This document shows positions 941 through 52,997 of a DNA stretch of 64,000 bases, piece after piece. Both the position numbers and the translations under genes were made by a program. The DNA comes from Candidatus Falkowbacteria bacterium (GTDB lineage: Bacteria > Patescibacteriota > Patescibacteriia > Patescibacteriales > UBA12465). Numbering within the stretch: the stretch's first letter is position 1; each line of letters starts with the position of its first letter. The notes under the pieces were generated by a model. It was not told the DNA's origin. It worked only from the letters and a program-made list of their open reading frames with translations, and ran no database searches. The stretch is from NCBI GenBank assembly GCA_037132255.1, contig JBAXPN010000001.1, forward strand, positions 17,020 through 81,019. Reading direction: 5' to 3'.

Positions 941-1765
941 ATGGCTGAGGAAGAGCAAAATATACAAACAGAAACAAACACCCCAAAAGTAATTAGGGGT
1001 GCTTTGCAAGTGATTGGAGGAGCTATTCCTTTTGCTGGGGGTTTATTTTCGGCTGCTGCAGGAGCTTGGTCGGAAAATGAACAAGAAAGAGTAAATAGAT
1101 TTTTTAGGCAATGGATAAAAATGCTTGAGGATGAAATAAGAGAAAAGGAAAGAACTATTCTCGAAATTATGGCTCGATTGAATATTCATGATGAAGAAAT
1201 CGCTAAAAGATTAGAAAGTAAGGAATATCAATCATTGCTTAAAAAAACATTTAGAGAATGGTCTGGAGCTGAAAGCGAGGATAAAAGAACTTATATTAGA
1301 AATATCCTTGCTAATGCGGCCGCTTCATCCATGACAAGCGATGAGGTAGTTAGACTTTTTATTGATTGGTTAAAGACTTATTCAGAATTACATTTTAAAG
1401 TTATTGCCATTGTCTATAAACACGGAACAAATGGAGTATCACGAGGTGGTGTTTGGAGCGATCTAGGAAAAGAAGACGTTGCCGAAAATTCCGCTGAAGC
1501 AGATTTGTTTAAACTCCTTTTTAGAGATTTAAGCACTGGCGGTGTTATTAGACAACATCGTGAAGTTGATTATTACGGCAATTTTGTAGCAAAAAAAACG
1601 CAATATCGTCCGAAAGGGTCTGGACAAAAAACTATGACTTCCGCTTTTGATGATGAAGATTCTTATGAACTTACAGAGCTGGGAAAACAATTTGTTCATT
1701 ATGCTATGACTGATTTACCGCTTAAGATAGAATATAAGCCACAAAATGAAGCAAATCAAGAATAA
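941..1765 (+). CDS. Hypothetical protein, glycine-zipper N-terminus; Abi-alpha/DUF4393-like architecture
   Basis: The ORF track starts at GTG 917; ATG 941 lies 8 nt after the upstream stop. Small-xxx-small segment GALQVIGGAIPFAGGLFSAAAGAW, then a helical region with NILANAAASS and a winged-helix-like C-terminus. Family assignment is from memory of the fold and is not verified. Confidence 0.4.
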   Translation: MAEEEQNIQTETNTPKVIRGALQVIGGAIPFAGGLFSAAAGAWSENEQERVNRFFRQWIKMLEDEIREKERTILEIMARLNIHDEEIAKRLESKEYQSLLKKTFREWSGAESEDKRTYIRNILANAAASSMTSDEVVRLFIDWLKTYSELHFKVIAIVYKHGTNGVSRGGVWSDLGKEDVAENSAEADLFKLLFRDLSTGGVIRQHREVDYYGNFVAKKTQYRPKGSGQKTMTSAFDDEDSYELTELGKQFVHYAMTDLPLKIEYKPQNEANQE

Positions 1766-1931
1766 TTATTATAAATATTGAGGAGAGCCGTTCCAAGTGT
1801 GTCCCACCCTCTCTAGGTATTACTAATAAAGATTTAAATAAGATTCCGGTCGGCTCGTTTACCCCGTCCCAGATTAAAAAAATTGAGGACATTATTAGCG
1901 GTAAGATAAAATAAGGATTACTATCTCGAAT

Positions 1932-1969
1932 AAGGCAGAGTTTTTGAAGTTAATAAAATAAAAAAACTC
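1932..1969 (+). repeat. Hairpin motif copy A (AAGGCAG + 8-bp stem + 16-nt loop containing AGTTAATAAAATA)
   Basis: Stem GAGTTTTT (1938-1945) pairs with AAAAACTC (1962-1969). The loop and 5' flank are nearly identical to the copy at 3827-3861. Confidence 0.55.
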
Positions 1970-1980
1970 ATAATAAAAAA

Positions 1981-3789
1981 ATGCCGAAAATAAATGACAT
2001 ACCAAATTTGGAAAACATTCCAAAATTTATAAAAGATTTCTCGAAAGAAGAATCAAAAGATGAAAGGTACCAGGCCGCCGTTGATATTCGTGCTAAAAGA
2101 TCGGAATATTTTAATGAGGAAAAAATTGAAAAAGCTAGACAAGTAGAATCAGAAAAGGAAGGAAATGAAAGAAGAAGGTTATTGTCAGAGCAGCTAGAAA
2201 AAATTTATAATCTTAAAAATGAGATTACTGAACTTTCAGAATCTGGTTTAAAAAAAATACTAAATTATTTTGAATTAAAAAAGATTAGAGCGGAGATTGT
2301 CATTGGAAAAAAAACATATGAAGAATTAAATGACCAGTTTAATAAGAATAATGCGATTGAATCATTAGTTTCTCAAAAAACAGAAGAAGAAATATTATTA
2401 CCTTGGCAGACGACGAAAATAATGCTGGATAATTTTTATCAGGAACAGGAAAAAAAATGGGCGAATAGTGAATATGCCAGAGAAGATGTGATTAAGTATT
2501 TTTCTGAAAAAAATCTTGCTGCATTATCACTTGAAGAATACACCCTTTTGCTAAAGCGTTTTTCAGGTGAGATGGTAACTCATGTTACCAGGCAGGGAGT
2601 AAGGGATCATGTCGGGCATTCATATCATACGGCCGGTGAAGGTGAATTTTCTGAGGGATTTTCTAAAATGATTGAGGACGGTCGATTGCGTTCACCGCTA
2701 GGGGTTAGGTTAATTGAAAATGAAAAAGAAAAAGCTCTTGCTAAATTCCTGTCATTAGATAATTTTAATACCAAAGAAGAGGCCCTTGCTCATTTGTCTG
2801 CTATTACTAATACTAGTCAAGATTCGGGATCATATATGGACAGCATGGCCGTACATTTTGCCGCCGAAGAAGTAGCTGATGATTACTACGGATCAGAGAA
2901 GGGAAACGAAATTTTTATTGCGTATCCATCTTTGTATATCGCTTCGCAATATTATTTTAGAGGTTTTTTAGATGATAATAGCGGGGGTTATTGGAATGAT
3001 AGTTGGGTATGGGCGAATGAAGAAAAAGGAATTGATTTGAATACTGGGATTATTTTTATCCCTGAAGAAGCTAAAGTTGATCGACAAACTGGCTCTAGAT
3101 ATGAGTTAGATGAAGACAGAAAACCGATTAAGAATCAAGAATATTATGAATTAATTAGAAAAGTCGTCAATTCTGAAGATTTTTATGATTTTGCTGGGCA
3201 AGTTATAGAAATTACGGGCTATTGTTCAGGATTTTTTGAAAGTCATTGGGATACGTCAAGCTTAACGTTAGAAGATGAATTAGTAATTAAAAAATTAGAT
3301 CCATTTTTAAAAAAACTGGAACAAGAATTTAATATTACTGATAAGCGTTTGCAGCAGGCAATTATGAGATACGACAACTTAACAAATTTTGTTCAAGAAA
3401 GAAAAAATCGAGAGATGGGAATAAAGGAAAAGGAGTTTTATTCCTTTGATTATTATATTAATAAGGCATTAAAACAACAAGGAATTTTGTTTTCTGAAAC
3501 TAAGGATGACCTTAGTTCGAAGGAATTTTGGGAAAATAAATTTAGGGCAAATTCTAAAACAAAGCCATCCAAGATTGTCTATTATCATGGCATAGACGCA
3601 ACGAATGCTCTTAATAAATGGAGAGAGGAAAATGAAATAATTAAAAAAAAGGCTAGCCATGATATGGGTTTTCCAGAAAAGCATATAAACACAAATGAAC
3701 CGCCAGCAATATCTGGCATTGATCGTTTTCAGACTTTGGCAGAAAAAGTAATTGAAGATTATTTTAATAAAAAAGAAGTTGTAGAGTAG
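1981..3789 (+). CDS. Uncharacterised 602-aa protein: Lys/Glu-rich coiled-coil N-terminus plus unassigned globular region
   Basis: Long uninterrupted ORF in an AT-rich genome. The N-terminal ~140 aa are heptad-like and charged. The central segment HVTRQGVRDHVGHSYHTAGEGEFSEGF matches no family I recognise. Confidence 0.75.
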   Translation: MPKINDIPNLENIPKFIKDFSKEESKDERYQAAVDIRAKRSEYFNEEKIEKARQVESEKEGNERRRLLSEQLEKIYNLKNEITELSESGLKKILNYFELKKIRAEIVIGKKTYEELNDQFNKNNAIESLVSQKTEEEILLPWQTTKIMLDNFYQEQEKKWANSEYAREDVIKYFSEKNLAALSLEEYTLLLKRFSGEMVTHVTRQGVRDHVGHSYHTAGEGEFSEGFSKMIEDGRLRSPLGVRLIENEKEKALAKFLSLDNFNTKEEALAHLSAITNTSQDSGSYMDSMAVHFAAEEVADDYYGSEKGNEIFIAYPSLYIASQYYFRGFLDDNSGGYWNDSWVWANEEKGIDLNTGIIFIPEEAKVDRQTGSRYELDEDRKPIKNQEYYELIRKVVNSEDFYDFAGQVIEITGYCSGFFESHWDTSSLTLEDELVIKKLDPFLKKLEQEFNITDKRLQQAIMRYDNLTNFVQERKNREMGIKEKEFYSFDYYINKALKQQGILFSETKDDLSSKEFWENKFRANSKTKPSKIVYYHGIDATNALNKWREENEIIKKKASHDMGFPEKHINTNEPPAISGIDRFQTLAEKVIEDYFNKKEVVE

Positions 3790-3826
3790 AAAATCGCCGA
3801 AAAATTTGGAATTATCATCTTTAACA

Positions 3827-3861
3827 AAGCAGGGTTTTCGCAGTTAATAAAATAAAAACCC
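3827..3861 (+). repeat. Hairpin motif copy B (AAAGCAG + 7-bp stem + 16-nt loop containing AGTTAATAAAATA)
   Basis: Stem GGGTTTT (3832-3838) pairs with AAAACCC (3855-3861). Relative to copy A, stem position 2 changes A:T to G:C. The 3' arm overlaps an alternative hairpin, CCCATC (3859-3864) with GATGGG (3881-3886). Confidence 0.55.
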
Positions 3862-3948
3862 ATCTTATGCGAAATTAATTGATGGGAGAAAAGAAAATCT
3901 TTATTTAAAGTACTATTTTTAATTAGAGCTAATAGTTAAACAATATAA

Positions 3949-4716
3949 ATGGGAAAACTATTTAAAGTCTTATATTTTGTTTTGGCAATTATCTTTTTTA
4001 TTTCTTGGTTCGAAGTAAAGAAACTTCCTGCTGCCAGCGAAATAAATCCTGCTTTATTACAGGCGCCTATCCAAGCCTCGAGCACTGAGCGAGTAAATTT
4101 CGATTACTATTATCGCAATAAATGGTACAGTGTAAAACCCTTGGCCGATTACGAGCTTTGGGGCCTGGTTGTTTCGCAAAACAATATTAATGCTTGGTAT
4201 AATTATTATCATGACGAAAACTCAGTTAATTTAAAAGATGTTTGCGTAGTTTGGGGAGATAACGTAAAAGACGGCGCTTATAATCAAAAGAGTTTGAATT
4301 TTAAGAGTGGGGAATGGACCTGCTATTTCGGTTGGTCTGGTAATTTGGAAAAACAATTTTATCCTTTTAAATTATCGAATAATCATCTTCTAGCCGATAA
4401 TGAAAAAGTGCTTTCGACGATTCGCAATGTTAATATCGGTGACCAAATACATTTTAAGGGAGCGTTAATTGATTATTCGGAAAAAGGTAGCTCCTGGCTA
4501 CGCCAGACAAGCTTATCGCGAGAAGATGAGAACGGAAATTCACGTAGCGGAGGCGCCTGCGAGATTGTGTTTGTTGATAAAATTGATATTATTAAACATA
4601 ATAAAGCAATCTGGAATAGCGTCTATGATTGGACAGGGAGGGTGGCGCTTGGCACTTTTCTTTTAAATATATTGTGGGTATTTATTGATACCAGACGCAG
4701 GCCCCATAAAAGTTGA
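3949..4716 (+). CDS. Hypothetical bitopic membrane protein (TM helix at each end, Trp/Tyr-rich central domain)
   Basis: Hydrophobic N-terminus VLYFVLAIIFFISWF and C-terminal helix VALGTFLLNILWVFI. No recognisable catalytic motif. Confidence 0.6.
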   Translation: MGKLFKVLYFVLAIIFFISWFEVKKLPAASEINPALLQAPIQASSTERVNFDYYYRNKWYSVKPLADYELWGLVVSQNNINAWYNYYHDENSVNLKDVCVVWGDNVKDGAYNQKSLNFKSGEWTCYFGWSGNLEKQFYPFKLSNNHLLADNEKVLSTIRNVNIGDQIHFKGALIDYSEKGSSWLRQTSLSREDENGNSRSGGACEIVFVDKIDIIKHNKAIWNSVYDWTGRVALGTFLLNILWVFIDTRRRPHKS

Positions 4717-4752
4717 TTAGCATAAAGCGCGACAATACAAATAAAGAAAATT

Positions 4753-4783
4753 AAAAACCCGCTTCTTCCGAAACGGGTTTTGT
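4753..4783 (+). terminator. Intrinsic terminator after the 3949-4716 gene
   Basis: AAAACCCG (4754-4761) pairs with CGGGTTTT (4774-4781), 12-nt loop, T-rich 3' side. Confidence 0.6.
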
Positions 4784-6891: not shown

Positions 6892-6920
6892 AAAAAAACC
6901 TTTTAGCAAGGGTTTTTTTA
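6892..6920 (+). terminator. Intrinsic terminator (weak stem, long T-run)
   Basis: AAAAAAACCTT-TTAGC-AAGGGTTTTTTT lies 50 nt after the stop at 6843. Confidence 0.5.
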
Positions 6921-18421: not shown

Positions 18422-18496
18422 ATTTGATTCGTTTATTTAATAATAGCTATAATATATTACGCTTACTCAATGAATTAAATTTTAGAGCTGGATTAA

Positions 18497-18544
18497 TGAC
18501 CCCTTATGACCTCTATTGACCCCTTTAATAGGAAAGGATATAAT
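18497..18544 (+). promoter_or_regulatory. Near-consensus sigma-70 promoter (TTGACC-17-TATAAT) overlapped by three TGACC direct repeats at a 10-bp period
   Basis: TGACC at 18497, 18507 and 18517; the outer two repeats share the 9-mer TGACCCCTT. The -35 box is 18516-18521 and the -10 box is 18539-18544. ATG 18551 lies 6 nt after the -10. Confidence 0.6.
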
Positions 18545-18550
18545 TGAGTT

Positions 18551-18799
18551 ATGAATCAAGAAATACGTCCAAACGCGGTCTATACGACTAGCGAAACAGA
18601 AGCTCTGCTTAAGATCAGCAATAGCACGCTGAAGCGTCTTTTGAAGAAGGGAATTCTTAAAGCGAATAAGGTTGGTAAGCAATATCGCATTCTCGGGCTT
18701 GAGATTTTAAAGCTAGTCTCTCCTGTCGTTGAGGAGAAGGCAGTTAGTGCTTATCTTAATTTAAAGAAAAAGGTAATTGAGAAAACTAGTGAATGGTAA
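18551..18799 (+). CDS. Excisionase-family (MerR-like) helix-turn-helix DNA-binding protein
   Basis: YTTSETEALLKISNSTLKRLLKKGILKANKVGKQYRI matches the HTH_17/excisionase pattern. It is the first gene of the plus-strand glycan operon. Confidence 0.7.
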   Translation: MNQEIRPNAVYTTSETEALLKISNSTLKRLLKKGILKANKVGKQYRILGLEILKLVSPVVEEKAVSAYLNLKKKVIEKTSEW

Positions 18800-18811
18800 T
18801 TAATTAATAAA

Positions 18812-20080
18812 ATGATATTAACTGCCAAAAACATTAAGAAGAGGATAGGAGAAATCTGGTCTCATGCTGGATTCCGGCGGTATTTTCGGAATACGGGCTG
18901 GCTGTTTGCTTTTCGGATTGCGAGCATGCTGGTTTCTTTTTTGGTTTCGATTTCAGTGGCAAGATATTTGGGCCCGGAAAATCTGGGAATAATAAATTAC
19001 TCGGTAAGTTTAGTTGGATTGTTTTCTTTTTTAGCGAGTTTAGGAATTGATAGTATTTTATATCGAGATTTAGTCAACGAGCCGGAGAAAGAAAATAAGC
19101 TAATGGGTACAGCGTTTTTTTTGAGACTTTTTGGATCAGTATTAGCTTTTATTGGCGTTATTATTACGATGATAGTTCTTCACGGTAATGCTTTAACCAA
19201 TGCGATTATTTTAATTATTGCCTCCGGTTATATTTTTCAAGCATTTTTAGTAATCCCATTTTATTTTCAGGCAAAAGTTATTTCTAAACATCTAGCACTA
19301 TCAATGTTTTTCGGAGTGTTTGTTTTATCGGCGCTTAAATTATTATTAATGTTTGTAAGCGCGAATATATTTTACTTTGCGATTGTTTTGCTACTCGAGC
19401 CAATATTGTATATGGTGATTTATTGGTTTATTTATAATCAGGCTGGTCGGAAAATTTTTGATTGGCGATTTGATAAAAAAATAGCCAAAACAATGCTGCT
19501 TGTTTCTTGGCCATTAATGTTTACCGGTGCTTTCGCGGCAATATATTCGCGCATCGATCAAGTAATGCTTGGCTCTTTACTAAACGCGAGAGCGGTCGGT
19601 ATTTATAGTGTTTCCGCTCTACTTTCAGAGTATTGGTATTTTGTTCCTTTAGGAATAGTTAGTTCTTTGGTACCGGCGATAATAAACGGGAAAAAGTCGG
19701 GAGAGATAACTTATAAAAAACGTTTAAAAAGCCTTCTGGGTTTAGTGGCATTAATCGGTTTAGCTGCGGCCGCTTTTTTTACGATATTTTCCGATTGGAT
19801 AATCCAGTTTTTTTACGGCGCAAATTATATTGAAGCGGCAAATGTTTTAAAGATATATATATGGGGCGGAATCGGTATGAGTTTAGGATTTGTTGTTAAT
19901 CAGCTTTTGATTATAGAAAATAAAACAAAGATAATTTTTATTTTTGGTTTAATTAGTATGTTGGTTAATGTAATCTTGAATTTAGTATTGATACCGAGAT
20001 TCGGTATGCATGGGGCGGCGATCGCAACGCTTATTTCATACTCGATAATTCCGCTTCCGATTTTGTTTATTAAATATTAA
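18812..20080 (+). CDS. Oligosaccharide flippase (Wzx-like, MOP superfamily)
   Basis: 422 aa with ~12 predicted TM helices. Lies in a glycan-locus context. Confidence 0.7.
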   Translation: MILTAKNIKKRIGEIWSHAGFRRYFRNTGWLFAFRIASMLVSFLVSISVARYLGPENLGIINYSVSLVGLFSFLASLGIDSILYRDLVNEPEKENKLMGTAFFLRLFGSVLAFIGVIITMIVLHGNALTNAIILIIASGYIFQAFLVIPFYFQAKVISKHLALSMFFGVFVLSALKLLLMFVSANIFYFAIVLLLEPILYMVIYWFIYNQAGRKIFDWRFDKKIAKTMLLVSWPLMFTGAFAAIYSRIDQVMLGSLLNARAVGIYSVSALLSEYWYFVPLGIVSSLVPAIINGKKSGEITYKKRLKSLLGLVALIGLAAAAFFTIFSDWIIQFFYGANYIEAANVLKIYIWGGIGMSLGFVVNQLLIIENKTKIIFIFGLISMLVNVILNLVLIPRFGMHGAAIATLISYSIIPLPILFIKY

Positions 20081-20087
20081 TTTGCAT

Positions 20088-20960
20088 ATGATTTCAGTAA
20101 AAGTAAGTGGAGGTCTAGGAAATCAAATGTTCCAATATGCTATTGGGCGGAATTTAGCTGAAAAGAATAATACCCAGCTTAAATTAGATATCACCGCCCT
20201 TTTAAATAGCTTGCCGAAAAAGGATTTTAGTTTTAGAGAGTTTGGTCTAGATGTATTTCAAGTGAAATATAAATTCAATATTTGTTCTCGTCTGGCGCTA
20301 GCAACTGGATTAAAAAATATATTTTTTATCATGAATAAAGTGGGTCTCATTTTTAGGAATAAAATTAGACCAATAATAGTAGAGAAGGGACAATTTAATT
20401 TCGAGGAAAAAGTTTTAGATTTGAAGGATGAGTTATATTTAGATGGTTATTGGCAAAATGAGAGATATTTTTTAGAAATATCTGATATAATTAGGCAAGA
20501 GTTTTTATTAAAAAATTCGCTTGATGGTTGGGCAAGTAATTGGCAAAAGCAAATAAACTCAGTCAATTCAGTTGCTATTCATATCAGAAGGGGCGACTAT
20601 GTTAACCTGGGGCTGAGTGAAATTTGCGGGCTAGATTATTATGAGAGAGCAATTGAATTAATTAAATCAAAAATTGAAAATCCTGAATTCTTTATCTTTT
20701 CCGATGATCCCAAATGGGCTAGTGATAATTTTTCCGGAGATAATATTCACATTGTTTCAAGTATAGAGAATAAAAGTGCGGCAATTGAAATGTATTTGAT
20801 GTCGGCCTGTGCTCATCAAATTATCGCCAATAGTTCCTTTAGTTGGTGGGGCGCGTGGTTAAATAAAAATATAAATAAAATAGTTATTGCTCCGAGTAAG
20901 TGGACAATTGGGACAGAAAATAGTCCCATTCTTACAACTTGGATAAAGGCACATGTATGA
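20088..20960 (+). CDS. Alpha-1,2-fucosyltransferase-like glycosyltransferase (GT11), intact copy
   Basis: GT11 motifs GGLGNQMFQYA, GYWQNERYF, HIRRGDY, ANSSFSWWGAWL. The track starts at TTG 20082; ATG is at 20088. Confidence 0.8.
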   Translation: MISVKVSGGLGNQMFQYAIGRNLAEKNNTQLKLDITALLNSLPKKDFSFREFGLDVFQVKYKFNICSRLALATGLKNIFFIMNKVGLIFRNKIRPIIVEKGQFNFEEKVLDLKDELYLDGYWQNERYFLEISDIIRQEFLLKNSLDGWASNWQKQINSVNSVAIHIRRGDYVNLGLSEICGLDYYERAIELIKSKIENPEFFIFSDDPKWASDNFSGDNIHIVSSIENKSAAIEMYLMSACAHQIIANSSFSWWGAWLNKNINKIVIAPSKWTIGTENSPILTTWIKAHV

Positions 20961-21877
20961 TTAAAGATAATTTAACATTTAAGCAGTGGATGAAGAAAAT
21001 ATTACCCGCAAGGAGTCTTTATTATCTTGATAGAATCTATCGTAAAATAATTAAATTTGCCCCAGTCGTTAGCAAAATTTCGAATTTTTATGTCCCTATT
21101 TATCAAGGAGCGAAATCAGATATTAAAAATGATGTTAATGATGACCAAGATTCAATTTCTGTAATTTTGAGTGGATACAAACGACCACACACGCTGACGG
21201 AACAAATTATTTCTGTAAAAAATCAGACACACAAGCCGAAAGAGATATTATTTTGGCAAAATAAATCTGATAAAATAGTAAATTTTGATAAGAAAGCAGT
21301 TTCTCAGATGAAGGCTGCAATATCAAATTATAATTTTGGCGTATGGGCGCGATTTGCCTTCGCTCTTAATTGTAAATCTGAATATGTTTGTATATTAGAC
21401 GATGATACAATTCCTGGGAGTCGATGGTTGGAAAATTGTCTTGCCTCATATAAAAAAAAGCCAGGACTTTATGGCACAATTGGATTAATTTTTGAATCAA
21501 CCGAGACTTATTACAAGGCACAAAGACTGGGCTGGGATGGCATTAATAATCATGACATAACCGAAGTTGATATTGTTGGGCATGCTTGGTTTTTTAAAAG
21601 AGAATCTCTATCTATGTATTGGAGAGACTTGCCGGATTTTGAAGATGTTTATGTGGGAGAGGATATGCATTTTTCTCATATGTTGCAAAAATATAGCGAC
21701 ATGAAAACGTATGTTCCTCCACACCCAATTAATTCGATGGAAATGTGGGGAAGTATCAAGGGAGAAAAATATGGAAGCGATGCAGTGGCTACTGCTGGTT
21801 TTGCTGTTCCCATAATGGACAAGTATTACAAAAAAATAATATCAAGGGGTTTTAAAATTATCAATGAAAATAAATAA
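20957..21877 (+). CDS. GT-A fold glycosyltransferase (DxD type), family uncertain
   Basis: SVILSGYKRPHTLTEQIISVKNQT plus ILDDDTIPG (DxD). The ATGA overlap with the upstream stop suggests translational coupling. Confidence 0.45.
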   Translation: MIKDNLTFKQWMKKILPARSLYYLDRIYRKIIKFAPVVSKISNFYVPIYQGAKSDIKNDVNDDQDSISVILSGYKRPHTLTEQIISVKNQTHKPKEILFWQNKSDKIVNFDKKAVSQMKAAISNYNFGVWARFAFALNCKSEYVCILDDDTIPGSRWLENCLASYKKKPGLYGTIGLIFESTETYYKAQRLGWDGINNHDITEVDIVGHAWFFKRESLSMYWRDLPDFEDVYVGEDMHFSHMLQKYSDMKTYVPPHPINSMEMWGSIKGEKYGSDAVATAGFAVPIMDKYYKKIISRGFKIINENK

Positions 21878-21892
21878 TTTTATATAAATAAT

Positions 21893-22582
21893 ATGAAAAC
21901 ATTTAGAGGGGAGATAGAAAAGATACTTGAAATGTTAAAATCAGAAAAGAAATTTTCGTTTAGTAAATATGCTGATGGAGAATGGTCTATAATGGAAGGA
22001 AGACGTTTAAATAATAAAGAGTTTAGTTTTTCATTTTTTGATAAATTTTACAAAAATAAATTAATTGAATCATTTAGGTTTCGAGATGAAAATTATTTTG
22101 TTGGTATAAGCTGTTTTTGTTGTCAGGGAGATAATTATTATAAAATGAAAGAATTTTGCGGCCAAGATGAAGAACATCTAACATTTGCGAATATTTTTGT
22201 TAACTCGAATTATGCCTTTTACGTTGATAATTTTATAGATGAATATAAAAAACGAGACATAGTTTTAGTTGCTAACAAGAATTCAAAAATAGAAAAATTA
22301 CCATTCGAAATAGAAAAGTTTTATCCAGTAGGTTTCTCTGCATGGAAGAAAAACTATAATTTAGCCGAAATAATAAAAAAAGAGAAATATAAAAACAAAT
22401 TATTTCTTTTTGCCTGTGGGCCTCTGGGTAATATTTTAGCTCATCAGCTTTGGGAGGATAATAAGGACAATGTTTATTTAGACATTGGGTCGACATTGAA
22501 TCCTTGGTTGCAAAGTGAGGGCTTCAAGAGAGACTACTATTGCGATGGCGCAAATAGTAAAAAAGAATGCATTTGGGCTTAG
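21893..22582 (+). CDS. Hypothetical; possible GT-D (DUF1792-like) glycosyltransferase
   Basis: N-terminal FSKYADGEWSIM resembles the family's FGDGE metal-binding motif. Lies in a glycan-locus context. Weak call. Confidence 0.3.
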   Translation: MKTFRGEIEKILEMLKSEKKFSFSKYADGEWSIMEGRRLNNKEFSFSFFDKFYKNKLIESFRFRDENYFVGISCFCCQGDNYYKMKEFCGQDEEHLTFANIFVNSNYAFYVDNFIDEYKKRDIVLVANKNSKIEKLPFEIEKFYPVGFSAWKKNYNLAEIIKKEKYKNKLFLFACGPLGNILAHQLWEDNKDNVYLDIGSTLNPWLQSEGFKRDYYCDGANSKKECIWA

Positions 22583-22613
22583 TAGTTTTTAATATGTTTT
22601 ATTGAAATTATTT

Positions 22614-23714
22614 ATGAAGAAAAATAGTAAGATTAAAATAGCTATTATCCTTGGAACTCGTCCAGAAATAATAAAAATGTCGCCAATAATTAGACAATGT
22701 AAAAAGCAAAATATTGATTTCTTTATTATACATTCCAATCAGCATTACGCGGAAAAATTAGATAAGATTTTTTTTAAAGAGTTAAACTTGCCAAGACCAA
22801 AATACAATCTTAATGTCGGCTCAGGCAAACATGGTGAAATAACTGGGAGAATGCTGCTTTTAATAGAAGAAATATTAATTAAAGAGTCTCCAAGTAGAGT
22901 TTTAGTTCAGGGAGACACGAATACTGTTTTGGCGGGTGGGTTAGCTGCTAGAAAATTAAATATTCCTGTTGGACACATCGAGGCTGGATTACGCTCTTAT
23001 GATGAAGAAATGCCTGAAGAGGTTAATCGAGTCCTAGTCGACCACTTAGCTGCTTATTTATTTCCGCCGACTGAATTAGCAAAACGGAATCTCGTAAAGG
23101 AGGGTATTGATAAAAACAGAATTTATGTAACAGGCAATACGGTCGTTGATTCGTTATTTGAAAATCTAGAGATAGCTAATCGAAAATCTAAAATAATGGC
23201 AAATTTAAAAATAAATTCCAAACAATATATTCTAGCAACAGCCCATAGACAGGAAAATGTTGACAACAAGGTAAGATTGATAAATATAATGGACGGACTT
23301 TCACGCTTAAGCAAAGAATTAAAAATACCTGTGATTATTCCGGCGCATCCGCGATTAATAAAAATGTTAGAAATTTTCGCGATTAAAGTTGGGGATACAA
23401 TTAAGTTTATCCCTCCGTTGGGCTATCTAGATTTTCTTGTTTTAGAAAAAAATGCCTTAGTTATCGCTACGGACTCAGGCGGGGTCCAGGAGGAAGCCTG
23501 TGTACTAAATATACCTTGTATTACGCTAAGAAATAATACAGAACGCCCGGAAACTATTGATGTTGGTGCAAATATATTAGTTGGAACTAACCCAGATTCG
23601 ATATTAAGAGGGGGGAAAAAAATACTAAAGAATGTGAAAAAATGGAAAAATCCCTTTGGTACTGGACATGCCGCTGAAAAAATAATAACAATAATAATTA
23701 AGCAAAAATTATAA
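22614..23714 (+). CDS. wecB: UDP-N-acetylglucosamine 2-epimerase (non-hydrolysing)
   Basis: LGTRPEIIKMSP, VQGDTNTVLAG, GHIEAGLRS, TDSGGVQEEA, RNNTERPE. The track starts at TTG 22602. Confidence 0.88.
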   Translation: MKKNSKIKIAIILGTRPEIIKMSPIIRQCKKQNIDFFIIHSNQHYAEKLDKIFFKELNLPRPKYNLNVGSGKHGEITGRMLLLIEEILIKESPSRVLVQGDTNTVLAGGLAARKLNIPVGHIEAGLRSYDEEMPEEVNRVLVDHLAAYLFPPTELAKRNLVKEGIDKNRIYVTGNTVVDSLFENLEIANRKSKIMANLKINSKQYILATAHRQENVDNKVRLINIMDGLSRLSKELKIPVIIPAHPRLIKMLEIFAIKVGDTIKFIPPLGYLDFLVLEKNALVIATDSGGVQEEACVLNIPCITLRNNTERPETIDVGANILVGTNPDSILRGGKKILKNVKKWKNPFGTGHAAEKIITIIIKQKL

Positions 23715-23745
23715 TTATGTATTGTAGATAAATTTAAAACAATTT

Positions 23746-24648
23746 ATGCAAATATCATTATTAACAAGAAGGCCTGGAGTATTTAACATTGATTATTTAA
23801 AAGAAATAATTAAGCGTCTTTTGAATAAAAAATCTGGACCGCTTTCTGTTCTGGAAAGTATGAAGAGGGGCCTCTCTTTTCTTGGCGTAGAGTATTCAGT
23901 TAATGATAAAATATTTGAGATTGTCCATGTTGTTAGTGGCGTTAATGCTCTGCGTTATGCGCTTGATTTGAAAAAGAAGAATTTAATTAAAACTTTAATC
24001 GTCGGGCCGGCGATTATCGCTTCTCCGGAAGAAGAAGGCGGTATTATTAATGACCCTAGTATCGATGTTATAGTTTTTCCGTCTCAGTGGACAAAGAATT
24101 ACTTTTGCTCAAAGTTACCAGAACTAAAAGATAAGATAGAACTTTGGCCAGCCGGAGTAATGGACTTAGGTGAAAATAGCCAGGACAAAGAAGGGGTATT
24201 AATTTTTAATAAGAATAATGTTAAATTAACAGGAGAAATATCCGGATATTTAAATAATAAAATTAAATATAGTATTATTAAATATGGTAAGTTTAAGCGA
24301 GAAGATTATTATAAATTATTAGATGCAAATAAATATCTAATTTATCTTTCTGATTCCGAAAGTCAGGGTTTAGCCCTTCAAGAAGCCTGGATGAGAAATG
24401 TGCCAACATTTGTTTATAATCGGGGTTATTGGCAATTAGGTTCTAATAAATGGACGGATGAAAAGATAAGCGCGCCATATTTAAATGATGAGACGGGAAT
24501 GTTTTTTAAAGATATAGAAGATTTTAAAAATAAGTTCGATATATTTATATCGCAAAAATATAATCCTAGAAAATATTGTTTAGAGAATTTAAGTGATAGA
24601 AAGTCGGCAGAAATATTAATAAATATAATTAATAAATATGTTAAATAA
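23746..24648 (+). CDS. Putative GT-B glycosyltransferase (GT1/GT4-like C-terminal half)
   Basis: YLSDSESQGLALQEAWMRNVPTF resembles the GT4 E-x7-E region. The N-terminal half is not recognisable. Confidence 0.45.
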   Translation: MQISLLTRRPGVFNIDYLKEIIKRLLNKKSGPLSVLESMKRGLSFLGVEYSVNDKIFEIVHVVSGVNALRYALDLKKKNLIKTLIVGPAIIASPEEEGGIINDPSIDVIVFPSQWTKNYFCSKLPELKDKIELWPAGVMDLGENSQDKEGVLIFNKNNVKLTGEISGYLNNKIKYSIIKYGKFKREDYYKLLDANKYLIYLSDSESQGLALQEAWMRNVPTFVYNRGYWQLGSNKWTDEKISAPYLNDETGMFFKDIEDFKNKFDIFISQKYNPRKYCLENLSDRKSAEILINIINKYVK

Positions 24649-25300
24649 GATTTTATTTAAACTTTTTGGGGTTCGTCTGATAAGCAGTCAATGTGGAGAG
24701 GACTTAATTATTGAGACCCTGCTCCCGTTTAAAAAAGAAGGATTTTATATTGATGTCGGCGCTAATCATCCGATAAAATATAATAATACTTTTTTATTTA
24801 AGAATAAGGGTTGGCGGGGAATTAATATTGAGCCGAATCCGAAAAGAATGAAATTGTTTAAAATGTTGAGACGAAGAGATGTTAACTTAAATGTCGGTAT
24901 TGGGCAGACAGAATCAGAATTAGATTTTTATGTTTTTGACGAACATACTTTAAGCACATTTGATACAAATTCAGTCGAAGAGTTTAAAAAAATTGGTCAT
25001 AAAGTTATAGAAGTTATTAAAGTACCTATTGTGCCTTTAAAAAATATTCTCGAAAAATATTGCGCGAAGCAAGAAATTGATTTGCTTTCTGTCGACACAG
25101 AGGGCTACGATCTCGAAGTATTGAAAAGTAATGATTGGAATAAGTTCCGTCCCCGATTCATTATTATTGAAACGCTTGAATATCGCAAAGAAGGAGAAGG
25201 GAAGAAACTAAATAATATATACGATAGCTTCATGTTAGAAGTTGGGTATAATAAAATAGCTGACACATATATAAATACAATTTATGAAAAAATCAACTAA
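24638..25300 (+). CDS. FkbM-family methyltransferase
   Basis: IDVGANHP...NIEPNP...LLSVDTEGYDLEVLKS follows the FkbM pattern. Confidence 0.75.
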   Translation: MLNKILFKLFGVRLISSQCGEDLIIETLLPFKKEGFYIDVGANHPIKYNNTFLFKNKGWRGINIEPNPKRMKLFKMLRRRDVNLNVGIGQTESELDFYVFDEHTLSTFDTNSVEEFKKIGHKVIEVIKVPIVPLKNILEKYCAKQEIDLLSVDTEGYDLEVLKSNDWNKFRPRFIIIETLEYRKEGEGKKLNNIYDSFMLEVGYNKIADTYINTIYEKIN

Positions 25301-26030
25301 GAGAAAATTATTTAAACTTTATCGAATTACTACGGGTTTGCTTTCTTTCCGCGCCCCCGGATTCTTTCAAGATTATTTTGCTTTTAAATCCCGCGGGAGT
25401 GAACGCTTTAGCTTATCGCCATTTGATTTCTATCCGCGAATGGGTGAGAAAACTCCGAATACTGCCTTTGATGCTCATTACGTTTATCATACTTCTTGGG
25501 CGGCCAGAAAAGTTAAAGAGATAAATCCCGAAATACACACTGATATTTCTTCTAGCCTTTATTTTTGCGGACTTGTTTCGGCCTTTGTTCCTGTTGATTT
25601 TTACGACTATCGTCCAGCAGAATTAACTTTATCAGGCTTAAAAACAGCATCAGCTGATTTAACGAAACTATTTTTTGCGGATAATAGTATTAAGTCGATC
25701 TCTTGCATGCATACGATTGAACATGTTGGCCTTGGTCGCTATGGCGATCCGATTGACCCCGAGGGTGATATTACCGCCATTAATGAATTAAAGAGGGTAA
25801 CCGCAATCGGCGGCTCAATTCTGTTTGTTGTTCCAGTCGGAGTACCACGCATCGAATATAATGCCCATCGTATATATTCATATGAAATGATTATGGAATC
25901 TTTTAGTGGCATGAAGCTAAAAGAATTTTCCCTGATTAATGACTACGGAAAATTTATTACGAACGCTGACCCAAGTTTAGTTAAGGAGCAGAAGTATAGT
26001 TGCGGTTGTTTTTGGTTTATCAAAGAATAA
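25284..26030 (+). CDS. Class I SAM-dependent methyltransferase (DUF268/Methyltransf_11-like)
   Basis: FADNSIKSISCMHTIEHVGLGRYGDPIDPEGD and GGSILFVVP. Overlaps the upstream gene by 17 nt. Confidence 0.6.
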   Translation: MKKSTKRKLFKLYRITTGLLSFRAPGFFQDYFAFKSRGSERFSLSPFDFYPRMGEKTPNTAFDAHYVYHTSWAARKVKEINPEIHTDISSSLYFCGLVSAFVPVDFYDYRPAELTLSGLKTASADLTKLFFADNSIKSISCMHTIEHVGLGRYGDPIDPEGDITAINELKRVTAIGGSILFVVPVGVPRIEYNAHRIYSYEMIMESFSGMKLKEFSLINDYGKFITNADPSLVKEQKYSCGCFWFIKE

Positions 26031-26037
26031 TTTAATT

Positions 26038-26889
26038 ATGTTGATCGTTGAACTTCAAGGCGGATTAGGCAACCAATTATTCCAATATGCATTTGGACGT
26101 CGTTTGGCGATTATTCGAAATGAAGAATTATTTCTCGATGTGACTGGTTTAGAAAATAATCTTGTCATTAAGCGCGAATACGGTCTAGAGCCCTTCAATG
26201 TAATAGCGCGCTTAGCCGACCCTAAAGTAGTGGAGAAAATAAAATATCCCTATGGTTTATTTTCCAAGCTAATTATAATCTTTTATCAAAAGATATTGCG
26301 CTTATTTTATATTGGCTATGAGCCGCACCTTCTTAAGTCTAAGGCGAAATATTTTTCTGGATTTTTTTAGAGTTATAAATACTTAGAGCCGATATGCGGT
26401 GAGCTCCTAAAAGAAATAAGTCTTAAAGAATCGCTGGCTACAAAATACACAGAGCTTCTGGCAGAAATTTCAACGACAAATTCTGTTTCTTTGCATATTC
26501 GTCGTGGTGATTATGTATCCGACCCTAATACGAAAGCGGCGCACTATACCTACGGAATGGAATATTATTCTTCTGCGATTAAATTAATCGATTCTAAATT
26601 AGATAATCCGGTTTATTTTATTTTCTCCGATGATATTGCTTGGGTAAAGGAGAATTTAAAGATTAGTTCTTCGGTAATATTTGTTTCCGCTCCGAGTACA
26701 CATGACTACGAGGAATTAATGCTGATGAGTAAATGTAAAAATAATATTATTGCTAATTCAAGTTTTAGTTTTTGGGGAGCCTGGCTCAATCAGAATAGTA
26801 ATAAAATAGTCATTGCGCCGAAAAGGTGGAATAATGTTTATGAAAGCGAGTATAAAGAATTACTCCCTCATTCTTGGTTAAAAATATAA
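26038..26889 (+). pseudogene. Second GT11 fucosyltransferase-like gene interrupted by one in-frame TAG (26368-26370)
   Basis: Both track ORFs (26038-26370 and 26491-26889) are in the same frame. Reading through gives ...KYFSGFF*SYKYLEP...SLHIRRGDYV...ANSSFSFWGAWL. The TAG aligns with the Gln of the GYWQN/GYFQS motif. The C-terminal half has no ATG start. Confidence 0.75.
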
Positions 26890-26890
26890 T

Positions 26891-27652
26891 ATGGAAACAA
26901 AAGTTTCAATCATAATTTGTACTTATAATCGAGCAAACTATATCGCGCATGCGCTTGATAGTATTTTAATGCAGACTTATCAGGGCTACGAAGTTATTAT
27001 TATTGATGACGCCTCGACTGATGATACCGAAGAACTCGTAAAGAAATATTTATCTCTCGATATGAGAATTAAATATTTTAAGAATGAGAAAAATCTTGGA
27101 ATACCGAAGAGTCGCAATAAAGGAGTCGTCTTATCACAAGGTGAATATATTGCAATGCTCGATAGTGATGATTATTGGTTGAGCGCTGAAAAGATCGCTA
27201 AACAAATTGAATTACTTGATTCAGATAAAGAGCTTGGACTCATCGGCGCAGGAATTATTTGTATTGATGAAAATGATCAAGAAACAAAAAAAGATATCTT
27301 TGCGACAGAGGATTATGAAATTAGAGAGAGAATCTTAGCCAAGAACCAATTTATGCAATCGAGCGTAGTCTTCCGTAAAGATGCTTATAAAGTAGTTGGT
27401 GGCTATCAGGAAAAATTTACAGTTTGCGAGGATTTCGATTTATGGTTAGCGATAGGCAGTAAATATAAATTGGCGAATTTACTTGCGCCCATGGTTGCGT
27501 ATCGCCTTCACTCAGGTGGAATTTCTAAAACCAGAAAATTAGAAATCGCACGAACAACTGACGAAATTATCGATAAATATAAAAAAAATTACCCGAATTA
27601 TTTACGGGCAAAATTTAAATCAATTCTACGAATAATGAAGTCTTATGTCTAA
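26891..27652 (+). CDS. Glycosyltransferase family 2
   Basis: VSIIICTYNRANYIAHALDSILMQTY, DDASTDDT, LDSDD. Confidence 0.85.
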   Translation: METKVSIIICTYNRANYIAHALDSILMQTYQGYEVIIIDDASTDDTEELVKKYLSLDMRIKYFKNEKNLGIPKSRNKGVVLSQGEYIAMLDSDDYWLSAEKIAKQIELLDSDKELGLIGAGIICIDENDQETKKDIFATEDYEIRERILAKNQFMQSSVVFRKDAYKVVGGYQEKFTVCEDFDLWLAIGSKYKLANLLAPMVAYRLHSGGISKTRKLEIARTTDEIIDKYKKNYPNYLRAKFKSILRIMKSYV

Positions 27653-28193
27653 GGAAAAACTAAATCTCGGAGCAGGGACGAAAAATCTTGAGGGCTATAT
27701 TAATGTTGATAACCGGAAAGAATGTAATCCGGAAGTTATCCATGATTTAAATATTATTCCGTACCCCTTCGCTGACAGTCAATTCTCGGAAGTTATAATG
27801 GATCACGCGATTGAGCATCTGAGTGACCCACTGGCCGTTCTTGGTGAGATATATCGTATTAGCGAACCAAACGCTATGATTTATATCAACTGTCCGCATT
27901 TTTCCGGTAACTGGGTTCACCCTGGTCATAAGTCGGCGATTAGTGTACATCTTTTTGATTTCCTTCGCCCAGGCGGGGAAGAGGTCTATGGAAATGCTAA
28001 TTTTGAACTTGAAAAAGTAGAGCTTCGTTGGTTCCGTTATCTTATTGGCCGGCGCGCGAATCCAATTTTAAAAATTTTAAATTATTTAATAAATATTGTC
28101 GCTAATTTAAGTCCGTCGTTTACGGAAAGATTTTTGTGTTATTCGGTGGGCGGATTTGAGGAAATAAGATTTACGGCAAGAGTAGTAAAATAA
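27645..28193 (+). CDS. SAM-dependent methyltransferase (Methyltransf_11/23-like)
   Basis: LNLGAGTKNLEGYINVD (motif I) and an IMDHAIEHL region. Confidence 0.6.
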   Translation: MSKEKLNLGAGTKNLEGYINVDNRKECNPEVIHDLNIIPYPFADSQFSEVIMDHAIEHLSDPLAVLGEIYRISEPNAMIYINCPHFSGNWVHPGHKSAISVHLFDFLRPGGEEVYGNANFELEKVELRWFRYLIGRRANPILKILNYLINIVANLSPSFTERFLCYSVGGFEEIRFTARVVK

Positions 28194-28201
28194 TTAATAC
28201 T

Positions 28202-29674
28202 TTAGTGTAAGAGCAAATATTGCGCTTGAATAGTTTTTTGATTAGATATTTTGAATGGCCAAAGTAGGGGATGATTATAGATTCTTAAATTCCAAATTAA
28301 TTCTTCATGCTGCGTAAAATTTTGTTTAATATAGTTTTCAAGTTCAATATTTTTTGCATTATCGTCGGCGTTTATAATAAAACAGTCGATTTTTTTTGAT
28401 TTAATATCATTTAAGATTTGTTTTTGAATCTCGGGCGTGAAAGTCCAGCTCCAATTAGGATAAAGAAAATAACTCTTCTGGAGATTGGGAAGGCGGAGAT
28501 ACATCATCGGACTACTTGGATAAATATAAATACTTTGACATTTTACTCTATCATAAATTATTACTCGGCTATCACTAGAAAAATTATAAGAATAAATTCC
28601 AGGTTTCGTAATAAAATTAAAATATGATGTATAAATTTGTCCGGTTAGATACGAGAAGAGAAATGAAAAAAAGCAGAGATTAAAAATGAGAATTGTGAGT
28701 TGGTTTAGCTTCGTATTATTCTTTAATAATTTCCGGCTTTCATCAATAATAATTATTGTTCCAATAAATAAACCAAGAAGAGAGGGGAGAAGATGATAGT
28801 CATCATTACGCGGGTAGGCTAGAAAAATTAAAAGAGCTGATGAAATTAACGGTAATAACAAATTCGAATATTTTGCTTTTCGAATAATTATAATTAAGGC
28901 ACTAATATCTCCAATAAGCATTAAATAAAAAAGACTGAGAGTATTTGGTGGCCATATTTTTCCCAAGCTTAGTACAACATCTCTATTGTATATAAATAGC
29001 CAATTATAAACGCTTACTAGTGAACTATGATAAATTAGGATAAATGGCAATAAGCTGATTAAAAAACCACTAAAGATAAGAGCGCCATTTTTAATGATTA
29101 ATTGTATATCTTTTTGATAGAGTAAAATCTGCCAAATAATAATGCTAATACTTAGAAGCGCGGCGGCATTTGGTTTTATTAAAAATATTAATCCTGTGAG
29201 CAGGCCAGCTAGTATATAATGAGCTGGCTTTATTTTTTGAATTACGCGGAAAACTAAAATTAGGAGAAAAAAGATATATGGCTCAGGCATTAAAGAAAAA
29301 CCAGTCAAACTAATCCAAAAAATAATGAACAGTAAGGCTGTTAAATACCTTTGCCAAGCCCTTAAGCTAAAAAGAGAAAGAAGGAAATAAATAATATATG
29401 TCGCACTAAGACAATTGATGAAAATAATAATAATCGGAAAATAATCTAAACTGAATAACTTATATAGTGGAGCGAAAAAAAAGTATAGTAGTGGCCCGTG
29501 ATGCTCGAAGAAGTTAACGAAAGGTATGAGTCCATGAGATGTCTGAGCGATTGATAGTAAGTGTTCTTGACCGTAAAGGCCGCGGGAAAGATAAAAAAAT
29601 ATTCCTCCGTAAAGCAGGATTAAAAAATAACTAAGATATTCTAATGTTTTTTTATTTCTCATGATACTCGTCAT
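28202..29674 (-). CDS. Polytopic membrane protein; candidate O-antigen polymerase or GT-C glycosyltransferase
   Basis: Has >10 hydrophobic helices and a ~120-aa soluble C-terminus. Lies in the glycan locus, which has no other polymerase candidate. Confidence 0.35.
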   Translation of the reverse strand: MTSIMRNKKTLEYLSYFLILLYGGIFFYLSRGLYGQEHLLSIAQTSHGLIPFVNFFEHHGPLLYFFFAPLYKLFSLDYFPIIIIFINCLSATYIIYFLLSLFSLRAWQRYLTALLFIIFWISLTGFSLMPEPYIFFLLILVFRVIQKIKPAHYILAGLLTGLIFLIKPNAAALLSISIIIWQILLYQKDIQLIIKNGALIFSGFLISLLPFILIYHSSLVSVYNWLFIYNRDVVLSLGKIWPPNTLSLFYLMLIGDISALIIIIRKAKYSNLLLPLISSALLIFLAYPRNDDYHLLPSLLGLFIGTIIIIDESRKLLKNNTKLNQLTILIFNLCFFSFLFSYLTGQIYTSYFNFITKPGIYSYNFSSDSRVIIYDRVKCQSIYIYPSSPMMYLRLPNLQKSYFLYPNWSWTFTPEIQKQILNDIKSKKIDCFIINADDNAKNIELENYIKQNFTQHEELIWNLRIYNHPLLWPFKISNQKTIQAQYLLLH

Positions 29675-31094: not shown

Positions 31095-31116
31095 ATCTAA
31101 ATTGAGACTTTAAGAA

Positions 31117-32442: not shown

Positions 32443-32673
32443 ATTTTTATGAAATTTATATTGTTAATATAGCAATATAAATACAAAAAATCAATCATTT
32501 CAGGGGCTTTTAATTAAAAAGGCCCCCTACTTAAGATTGAGTCTTATTATGTCGCTCTCCACGTGGTCGAGAGTCAGTCGTTTGTCTTTTTGATTTACAA
32601 AGAAATGGTGAAAATTACTTTAGGATAAAATCAATTTTTTGTCAAAAATAAGCCTTATATTTTTTATTAATTA

Positions 32674-51956: not shown

Positions 51957-52997
51957 ATGTTCAATAAACTGCTCGGAAAATTCAGCCATGATTTAGGTAT
52001 CGATCTTGGTACTCGTAATACCCTTGTTTATGTTGCCGATAAAGGAATTGTTGTTAATGAGCCGAGTGTAGTTGCGATTAATAAAAGAACTAATGAAATT
52101 CTCGAGGTTGGAGAAGCGGCCAAGAAAATGGTCGGCAAAACTCCCGGCCATATTGAAGCTATTAAACCCTTAGTCGATGGCGTTATTTCTGATTTTGAAA
52201 TTACGGAAAAAATGTTGAAGTATTTTATTAATAAAGTTCATAGTGAAAATTTTACTTTAATTTCTCGTCCACGTGTCGTTATCGGTATCCCGCTTGATTT
52301 AACTGAAGTTGAAAAAAAAGCGGTTGAAGATGCGGCTCGTTCGGCCGGGGCCCGAAAAGTATATTTAATTGAAGAGGCCATGGCTGCCGCTATCGGCGCT
52401 CGTCTTCCGGTAACGGAAGCAACAGCAACTATGATTGTTGATATTGGTGGCGGGACAACCGAGATCGCTGTAATCTCGCTTGGTGGCGTCGTAACTTGGC
52501 GCTCACTCAAAGCGGCTGGCAATGAATTTGATAATAATATTATTGAGTATATTCGTGAAGAATTTAATATTTTAATTGGCGAGCAATTAGCCGAGAGTAT
52601 TAAAATCGGAATCGGTTCCGCTGTGCCGCTTGATGAACCAAAGGAAATAGAAGTTCGTGGTCGTGATTTATTAACTGGTCTCCCGAAAGCAATCATGATT
52701 AGCGACAAGCAAGTGCGTGAAGCGATTAGTCGAACGATTTCCAAGATAATTGAAACTATTAAAACAATTTTAGAAACTACTCCGCCGGAATTAGTGTCAG
52801 ATATTTATGAACGTGGCCTTTATTTATCTGGCGGTGGCGCTTTGCTCCGCGGCCTCGATAAAGCGATATCTTCAGCCGCAAAGATTCCGGTTAAGATTGT
52901 TGATGATCCGCTAACTTGTGTTGCGCGTGGAACCGGCCTCTTGCTCGGTAATAAAGAATTATTAGAAAAAGTTGTCCTGGCTAATAACCAAGAATAA
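51957..52997 (+). CDS. mreB: Rod-shape-determining actin homologue MreB (copy 1, in the mreBCD operon)
   Basis: GIDLGTRNTLVY, NEPSVVA, DIGGGTTEIAVISLGG, LSGGGALLRGLD. Confidence 0.92.
   Translation: MFNKLLGKFSHDLGIDLGTRNTLVYVADKGIVVNEPSVVAINKRTNEILEVGEAAKKMVGKTPGHIEAIKPLVDGVISDFEITEKMLKYFINKVHSENFTLISRPRVVIGIPLDLTEVEKKAVEDAARSAGARKVYLIEEAMAAAIGARLPVTEATATMIVDIGGGTTEIAVISLGGVVTWRSLKAAGNEFDNNIIEYIREEFNILIGEQLAESIKIGIGSAVPLDEPKEIEVRGRDLLTGLPKAIMISDKQVREAISRTISKIIETIKTILETTPPELVSDIYERGLYLSGGGALLRGLDKAISSAAKIPVKIVDDPLTCVARGTGLLLGNKELLEKVVLANNQE

Follow-up and report, generated by a model that had tools for sequence, protein, structure and literature searches.

Direct repeats around inserted DNA are a known arrangement, familiar from the attL and attR ends of tRNA-integrating islands and of cis-mobilizable elements (CIMEs) that lack an integrase. 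Here we describe a variant of it in a genome of the candidate phyla radiation (CPR), in which an imperfect direct repeat, with copies R_A and R_B, encloses a single orphan gene that has its own probable promoter and no known recombinase. The gene is the 602-amino-acid (602-aa) open reading frame (ORF) WCN88_00085 (1981..3789, + strand), and the window, by which we mean the whole 64-kb stretch analyzed, is chromosomal DNA of Candidatus Falkowbacteria (Patescibacteria/CPR) that is identical, with zero differences, in two other assemblies. In our leading, if still tentative, interpretation, R_A and R_B are diverged copies of the 602 gene's own 5' control region, a scar from the insertion or duplication of a single-gene cassette.

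The likeness to attL and attR lies in the direct repeats that bracket inserted DNA and in the occurrence of the gene family at tRNA 3' ends, and it extends to two homologue loci, L040 and L156, where the repeat is the tRNA 3' end itself. The window differs in having no tRNA at either repeat, in a repeat of about 65 nucleotides (nt) that has diverged by 23%, and in the enclosed DNA, which consists of one orphan gene and encodes neither a tyrosine nor a serine recombinase. Integron attC cassettes likewise have a single ORF between similar direct imperfect palindromes whose pairing is kept by a double change, and another homologue locus, L159, resembles them in that its consecutive genes are separated by one hairpin repeat in five copies. 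The window, however, lacks the RYYYAAC (R'') and GTTRRRY (R') cores (GTTAATA has T at the R position, and a complementary TTAAC occurs only upstream of R_B), and it has no integron integrase, two sites only, and a cassette with its own probable promoter. The subterminal hairpins of IS200/IS605 elements are comparable in that two similar same-strand hairpins lie near both ends of a short unit, but there is no HUH/Y1 TnpA or TnpB here, and the 602-aa protein has no Pfam or fold match. Repetitive extragenic palindromic (REP) sequences and bacterial interspersed mosaic elements (BIMEs) are lineage-specific intergenic palindromic repeats, as are those at the homologue loci L010, L013, L017, and L159; the window element, in contrast, is not dispersed: its two copies in 64 kb flank one and the same gene. 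R_B resembles an intrinsic terminator in forming a stem-loop right after a stop codon and differs from one in its A/T stem with 2-3 G:C pairs, its 16-nt loop, and its lack of a U-tail. A further parallel is the early region of phage T7, where a single transcript carries similar RNase III processing hairpins before and after a cistron. The R hairpin is far too short and weak for an RNase III substrate (about 8 bp versus about 20 bp). A search of the literature on CPR integrons, islands, and mobile elements found nothing relevant and, as far as the literature searched shows, the family-wide association with tRNA 3' ends reported below is undescribed.

The initial annotation of this stretch had described two copies of a hairpin on either side of the ORF. 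Both strings are present, the first at 1932-1969; the second, a 36-nt string, begins at 3826 and not, as had been given, at 3827. These hairpins are the 3' parts of the longer direct repeat, which brackets exactly one ORF, the 602-aa gene: R_A (1905..1969, + strand) ends 11 nt 5' of the ATG, and R_B (3799..3861, + strand) starts 10 nt 3' of the stop codon. Over 60 ungapped nt (1905-1964 versus 3799-3858), the copies are 77% identical at a spacing of 1894 nt, and they share an identical 17-mer, AGTTAATAAAATAAAAA (1948..1964, + strand, with its twin at 3842-3858), which covers the loop and the beginning of the 3' arm; with a 2-nt indel in an A-run, the repeat then continues across the 3' stem arm to 1969/3861. 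The local alignment of R_A and R_B scores 32, against 11.9 ± 1.7 (maximum 18) for shuffled sequences. DNA alignment found no significant similarity between the two upstream of 1905. At the other end, a colinear 14/17 match runs over the start codon (ATGCCGAAAATAAATGA at 1981-1997 versus ATG-CGAAATTAATTGA at 3867-3882). Judged from this match, the repeat may reach about 90 nt, and the stretch at 3867..3882 (+ strand) is a possible, weakly supported vestige of the start codon and first codons.

Within the material covered, the element is restricted to these two sites. A 30-nt degenerate pattern of flank, stem, and loop matches exactly two places in the window and none in 100 shuffles. The covariance-model scan that the initial annotation had suggested, built from both copies and run on the window with filters off, returned R_A at 93 bits and R_B at 89 bits, with the next best match at 21 bits; it found no third copy in the 64 kb, nor any copy in 21 related loci (160 kb). 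The exact pattern is missing from 84 other loci, and the R sequence of the window occurs in none of the 160 homologue loci that we fetched; overall, about 170 related loci are free of further copies.

Repeats unrelated to R nevertheless recur around members of the same gene family. We defined a bracketing repeat as a direct repeat scoring 29 or more between the 300-nt upstream and downstream flanks of a gene, and we took the homologue set as the 160 fetched loci, 99 of them nonredundant. Such repeats bracket 12/94 homologue loci versus 9/295 neighboring genes (odds ratio 4.7, Fisher P = 9e-4), and the proportions in an earlier subset were 9/70 and 5/257. They are 19-63 nt long and lineage specific, with no common sequence or structure; as a rule, 16-260 nt separate the upstream copy from the ATG, and the downstream copy is found -1 to about 200 nt past the stop codon. 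At L010, L013, and L017, palindromic repeats surround neighboring genes too. Among the closest homologues (about 59% identity), L094 and L095 have inverted repeats, up to 125-136 nt long, that run as far as the promoter and the stop codon; L003, of the same group, shows 25 nt of inverted repeat before its contig ends, and L117 has a 63-nt inverted repeat within a 27-nt direct repeat.

Some further details of these loci deserve mention on their own. The inverted repeats with terminal hairpins lie at 1-136 and 1926-2061 in L094 and at 345-485 in L095, and in L003 they are at the contig ends. The downstream outer flank of L094 is the reverse complement of the upstream outer flank of L095, so that these two contigs may reflect a gene segment that can invert or else a single long palindrome. 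At L159, the five hairpin-repeat copies (TCCGCCTAGTGGAGG.YGTTAGAACC), at 788, 1335, 1734, 2354, and 4225, separate five consecutive genes in an arrangement that is cassette-array-like, with no integrase seen within the locus.

The family is also associated with tRNA genes. Where a tRNA lies within 150 nt of the gene, its 3' end faces the gene in 16 loci and its 5' end in none; within 300 nt, the figures are 23 versus 2, and for tRNAs more than 600 nt away, they are balanced (15:12). The binomial P value for this orientation bias is about 2-3e-5. At least a dozen tRNA identities are involved, the tRNA may precede the start or follow the stop, and the gene is found in both orientations relative to it. 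In L040 (tRNA-Glu) and L156 (tRNA-Ser), the 3' end of the tRNA occurs twice, once on each side of the family gene, and apart from this gene, which has a promoter and a terminator of its own, the enclosed DNA contains no ORF. This arrangement is a classical signature of site-specific integration. Among the tRNA-adjacent homologues of the first set, a far-side duplicate of the tRNA 3' end was significant only in L040, L156 being found later; L013 and L117 have extra duplicated tRNA-Leu 3' ends. Proteins that are 78-90% identical also occur in unrelated contexts (L128 versus L131; L004 versus L117 and L026), with nucleotide homology limited to the gene and up to about 80 nt upstream, while at similar divergence the core genes of the window stay syntenic with L087, a locus described below.

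R_A is now most likely the promoter of the 602 gene, to judge from its sequence. Its promoter-like layout (1944..1974, + strand) consists of a -35 hexamer, TTGAAG (1944-1949), a 19-nt spacer, a -10 hexamer, CATAAT (1969-1974), and 6 nt before the ATG; the -35 falls at the junction of the 5' arm and loop of the R_A hairpin and the -10 just 3' of the hairpin. In the 58 family loci whose N terminus is reliable, the gap between a -10-like hexamer and the ATG is 6 nt in 11 cases and 8 nt in 7, and L003, L094, and L095 have TTGATA-17-TAAAAT/TAGAAT-6/8-ATG. In its distance from the -10 to the ATG, the window matches this family mode. A promoter scanner that allows 16-18-nt spacers only did not list TTGAAG-19-CATAAT. 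No Shine-Dalgarno sequence precedes the ATG at 1981, and the distance from the -10 to the ATG suggests a leaderless mRNA. The true start of the ORF is uncertain because a possible alternative start, TTG at 2008, would give the N terminus MENIPKFIKDFSKE, which matches the family N-terminal consensus. R_B has TCGCAG at the position of the -35, and its -10 position lies outside the repeat and is degenerate. The members of one subfamily (L004, L026, L117, and L121) have in common a conserved leader about 60 nt before the ATG, TGATAAAATGA, followed by a hairpin (TTTGCTTGC...GCAAATA), and carry a C-rich tract, CCTCCC, before the ATG in place of a Shine-Dalgarno sequence.

The surroundings of the 602 gene are a patchwork. 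The next gene downstream encodes a 255-aa hypothetical protein (hyp255; 3949-4716, + strand), whose closest relative, in L087, has 75% amino-acid identity. L087 retains the block of hyp255, a peptidoglycan (PG)-binding protein, and ribonucleotide reductase (RNR), together with the terminator after hyp255, and 3929 is where its DNA homology to the window sets in; to the left of that point, the two genomes differ throughout. The start of this conserved core block, hyp255 and its terminator, thus spans 3929..4783 (+ strand). Upstream of hyp255, L087 has a different, 216-aa gene and no R-like sequence, and conservation of R at an orthologous site was rejected for that reason. Directly upstream of the 602 gene lies a gene for a 274-aa hypothetical protein (941-1765, DNA homology 940-1779, + strand) with 3872 homologues. 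Its counterparts in other Falkowbacteria match it at 95-96% (protein) and 91% (DNA), with the homology ending at the gene borders. There the gene belongs to an island that also encodes a large serine recombinase, a Rep protein, an AAA_15/AAA_21 ATPase, and a RelB/ParE pair, and it may be a horizontally exchanged defense-type gene. An attempt to find an empty site through the 274-aa gene failed, as its 95%-identical homologues occupy a different island and the homology stops at the gene ends. In other Falkowbacteria, this gene follows the AAA_15/AAA_21 ATPase and a 166-aa gene. The L002 contig (GCA_005795915.1) ends inside it, at the equivalent of about 1283 in the window, a break that is consistent with the gene being repeated or variable in the population. 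Given the single-gene limits of homology on one side and the edge of the conserved block on the other, the 602 gene sits in a mosaic of single-gene units.

These observations together lead us to favor a cassette scar. R brackets one ORF, has two copies in 64 kb, and is missing from L087; the 602 gene has a low GC content (0.327, the sixth lowest among 57 genes, with a median of 0.381) and adjoins another single-gene unit of the mosaic; the family shows the excess of bracketing repeats, the tRNA 3'-end bias, the L040 and L156 arrangements, and the changes of context; and the promoter geometry is that of the family, with a possible start-codon vestige after R_B. On this interpretation, about 65 nt (possibly about 90 nt) of the 5' control region would have come to flank the gene as a direct repeat by either of two routes. 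A circular copy might have integrated by a Campbell-type event, or a tandem duplication might have arisen whose second gene body was lost afterwards. R_A would have been retained as the promoter, and R_B would be a decaying, presumably neutral vestige between the stop codon and the next gene.

Several observations weigh against this interpretation. There is no tRNA in the 64-kb window, and none of its 57 ORFs has a recognizable integrase, transposase, resolvase, or recombinase Pfam domain. Neither an empty site nor an excision product was found, the three assemblies being identical and the nearest relative too diverged. The extension of the repeat over the start codon is of marginal significance, with a P value of about 0.015-0.02 that holds only when the test is limited to the colinear position. 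The 19-nt spacer of the proposed promoter is unusually long, and there is no extended -10 of the form TGnTATAAT, as at clear promoters of this genome. Some of the brackets around homologues have other explanations, that at L159 being one hairpin repeat of a genome-wide intergenic type that is not gene specific and that at L123 being explained by a tandem paralogue. The decayed 3' end of a lost paralogue before R_A, considered on the strength of a by-eye resemblance (KKIEDII versus KVIEDYF), was rejected, as a family hidden Markov model run on six-frame fragments was negative; DNA alignment upstream of 1905 was also negative for a gene remnant. Finally, the identical 17-mer and the pairing-preserving double change, both kept despite 23% divergence, hint at constraint on both copies.

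This last point calls for a closer look at the hairpins, both of which are weak. That in R_A is formed by GAGTTTTT, a 16-nt loop, and AAAAACTC (1938..1969, + strand; -4.8 kcal/mol as RNA and -5.1 as DNA), and that in R_B is formed by GGGTTTT, a 16-nt loop, and AAAACCC (3832..3861, + strand; -4.7 and -4.9 kcal/mol), giving a stem consensus of G(A/G)GTTTT(T) with (A)AAAAC(T/C)C. The z-scores against shuffles are -2.5 (R_A) and -1.9 (R_B) for RNA and about -3 for DNA (-3.2 for R_A). The stems, the double change from A:T to G:C, and the missing U-tails had all been correctly described; comparison of the stems gives exactly one double-sided change and one lost loop-proximal pair. As a test of covariation, one double-sided pair in two sequences has no statistical power, and a shuffle control matches it in 245/500 trials. 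In a neutral simulation at 23% divergence, at least 7/8 pairs survive in 21% of trials, and they do so with a double-sided change in 4.7% (P about 0.047). The alternative hairpin CCCATC/GATGGG (3859..3886, + strand), which had been taken to make two structures mutually exclusive, is present and is part of the minimum-energy fold of R_B with its natural flanks, which leaves the shared hairpin out. It is confined to R_B, with no counterpart at R_A, so mutual exclusion is not a conserved property of the element.

Nor do the hairpins resemble terminators or known RNAs. The terminator scan lists neither copy, and the sequences after the stems (ATAATAAAAAAA and ATCTTATGCG) form no U-tail, whereas the real terminators of the window have an A-run, a GC stem with a 4-8-nt loop, and a T-run (examples are at 4754-4781, 6895-6920, about 13660, about 39590, about 47870, and about 63167). 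An intrinsic terminator was rejected both by sequence and by this contrast. Rfam, a check that had also been proposed, gave no match in the whole window at gathering thresholds, and a permissive scan of 1750-4000 returned chance-level hits only (E above 7), so a known RNA family was rejected as well. The T-run/A-run inverted repeat would seem to be a weak by-product or at most a recombination-prone feature rather than a folded regulatory RNA.

Other explanations of the repeat have nonetheless to be weighed against a cassette scar. R could be a functional structured element used twice, either an RNA processing or stability hairpin or a palindromic protein site, and selected at both positions. 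We consider this unlikely, though it would account for an identical 17-nt loop block and a compensatory stem pair that have outlasted 23% divergence, for an inverted repeat that folds better than shuffles (z about -3), and for the location of both copies on the sense strand of a probable 602-hyp255 transcript, in which no canonical terminator precedes 4754-4781. It sits poorly with stabilities of about -5 kcal/mol, A/T stems, and a 16-nt loop, with the preference of R_B in context for another fold, and with the absence of an Rfam match and of a third copy in the window or related loci. The alternative hairpin is not conserved in R_A, two sequences give no power to a test of covariation, and the repeats at homologues have neither sequence nor structure in common. 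Of the options that the initial annotation had offered, a structured RNA, a processing site, and a regulatory switch thus find no support, the stems being marginal, the covarying pair single, and the element found in no related locus. Its last option, cassette boundaries around the ORF, is the best fitting, since one gene is bracketed by the only two copies in 64 kb, unrelated bracketing repeats recur at homologues, and the gene family shifts its genomic context. Co-regulation of the 602 gene and hyp255 by a shared promoter or operator module ahead of each is, in our judgment, distinctly improbable. In its favor, each copy does precede a gene on the + strand, TAAAAT occurs in the conserved block, and hyp255 in the window has a degenerate form of its ancestral extended -10 (TGGTATAAT in L087). 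Against it, R_A is 11 nt from the ATG that follows it and R_B 87 nt, R_B has TCGCAG for TTGAAG and no -10 at the equivalent place, and R is found neither upstream of hyp255 in relatives nor at any other gene in the 64 kb. A chance resemblance between two A/T-rich intergenic stretches is hardly credible: the GC content of the window is low (32-40%), which speaks for it, but shuffling already refutes the idea, with the pattern at 0 matches in 100 shuffles and an alignment score of 32 against a shuffle maximum of 18. The 93 and 89 bits of the covariance model, compared with 21 bits for the next match, also speak against it.

It is also possible, although we think it rather unlikely, that the 602-aa protein is a new kind of recombinase and that R_A and R_B delimit, as att-like ends, an autonomous mobile element made up of its gene alone. 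Such an enzyme would recognize hairpin-forming DNA, for example tRNA 3' ends, and would duplicate its target or carry a copy of it. The duplicated tRNA 3' ends of L040 and L156 enclose no ORF but the family gene, nearby tRNAs turn their 3' ends to the gene 16:0, the subfamily of L003, L094, L095, and L117 has inverted repeats of 25 to 136 nt, and the gene changes contexts; the family is patchy and small (640 representatives), and its invariant motifs suggest an enzyme. Against these points, a confident structural model (pTM 0.87) has no recombinase, transposase, or nuclease fold match, the protein has no Pfam, PHROG, or PADLOC match, and the paralogues within genomes are old (46-49% identical to the query), unlike those of an active insertion sequence. 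The gene may point either way with respect to the tRNA, a far-side duplicate of the tRNA is missing from most of the loci next to one, no empty site was observed, no member is found in IMG/VR, and the gene could equally be cargo moved in trans. That the family as a whole is a self-mobilizing enzyme, making up a roughly 2-kb single-gene CPR element that inserts at tRNA 3' ends and hairpin-forming intergenic sites, is similarly doubtful to us. An element of this kind would leave direct or inverted flanking repeats, and R_A and R_B could be its att-like ends. A cassette scar remains the interpretation that we prefer.

The protein itself consists of an N-terminal coiled coil and a 440-aa domain without a recognizable fold, and neither the protein alone nor the protein with 30 homologues has a Pfam, NCBIfam, PADLOC, PHROG, or PDB-sequence match. 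The family numbers 640 representatives (E <= 1e-3) among 1.84 billion cluster representatives, nearly all of 550-620 aa. Named sources are nearly all CPR or unclassified bacteria, with a few metagenome-assembled genomes labeled Gammaproteobacteria, Bacillota, or Bdellovibrionales. No member is present in IMG/VR, and a viral origin was rejected on that basis. In the AlphaFold prediction, two long helices pair at the N terminus (residues 26-162), and a 114-sequence alignment yields a confident C-terminal domain, with a predicted local distance difference test (pLDDT) score of 87 and a predicted template modeling (pTM) score of 0.87, for which Foldseek found no match in the PDB (best E 0.37) or BFVD (best E 0.11). 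Many His, Arg, Asp, Glu, and Tyr positions are invariant, for example in HVTRQGxRDHxGH, HFAxEE, and GSEKGNE, and these motifs suggest an enzyme.

By itself, the pair of hairpins is of limited note: a duplicated stretch of promoter that would mark where one inserted gene begins and ends. The interest lies in the wider pattern. CPR genomes appear to swap single genes with very sharp boundaries, and the window contains two adjacent examples. An orphan family, comprising about 640 sequence clusters and matching neither a known domain nor a known fold, behaves like an integrative element in its occurrence at tRNA 3' ends, its repeats, and its shifts of context. If it were true that the protein mobilizes its own gene, it would represent a new recombinase class and a minimal mobile element in a group of understudied, uncultivated bacteria. 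If the gene is cargo instead, its repeated capture beside tRNAs still marks the 602 family as an accessory function worth characterizing.

The remainder of the window gives the setting of the locus. The gene order begins with a methyltransferase (31-933), followed by the 274-aa gene, the 602 gene, and hyp255, after which come the PG-binding/Fn3 protein and then RNR; the rest is made up of housekeeping genes and a low-GC glycosylation cluster. Between the 274-aa gene and R_A lies a 25-nt intergenic motif, CGTTCCAAGTGYGTCCCACCCTCTC (1789-1813), that is 96% identical to an unrelated Falkowbacteria intergenic site (L176, 8470-8494). The glycosylation cluster (about 18800-32450, GC 0.29-0.34) contains glycosyltransferases, a flippase, an epimerase, and methyltransferases. 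At its head, in a 390-nt gap that appeared intergenic (18422-18811), is an 82-aa ORF absent from the ORF list (18551-18799, + strand) that matches HTH_17, an excisionase-family helix-turn-helix domain (E = 2e-9). The cluster also has a full Glyco_transf_11 gene (20082-20960) and a 132-aa fragment (26491-26889) that matches the C-terminal part of the family only, which suggests a truncated duplicate. Farther along, two MreB paralogues (51957-52997 and 57734-58741) lie less than 6 kb apart, with MreC and a weak MreD match.

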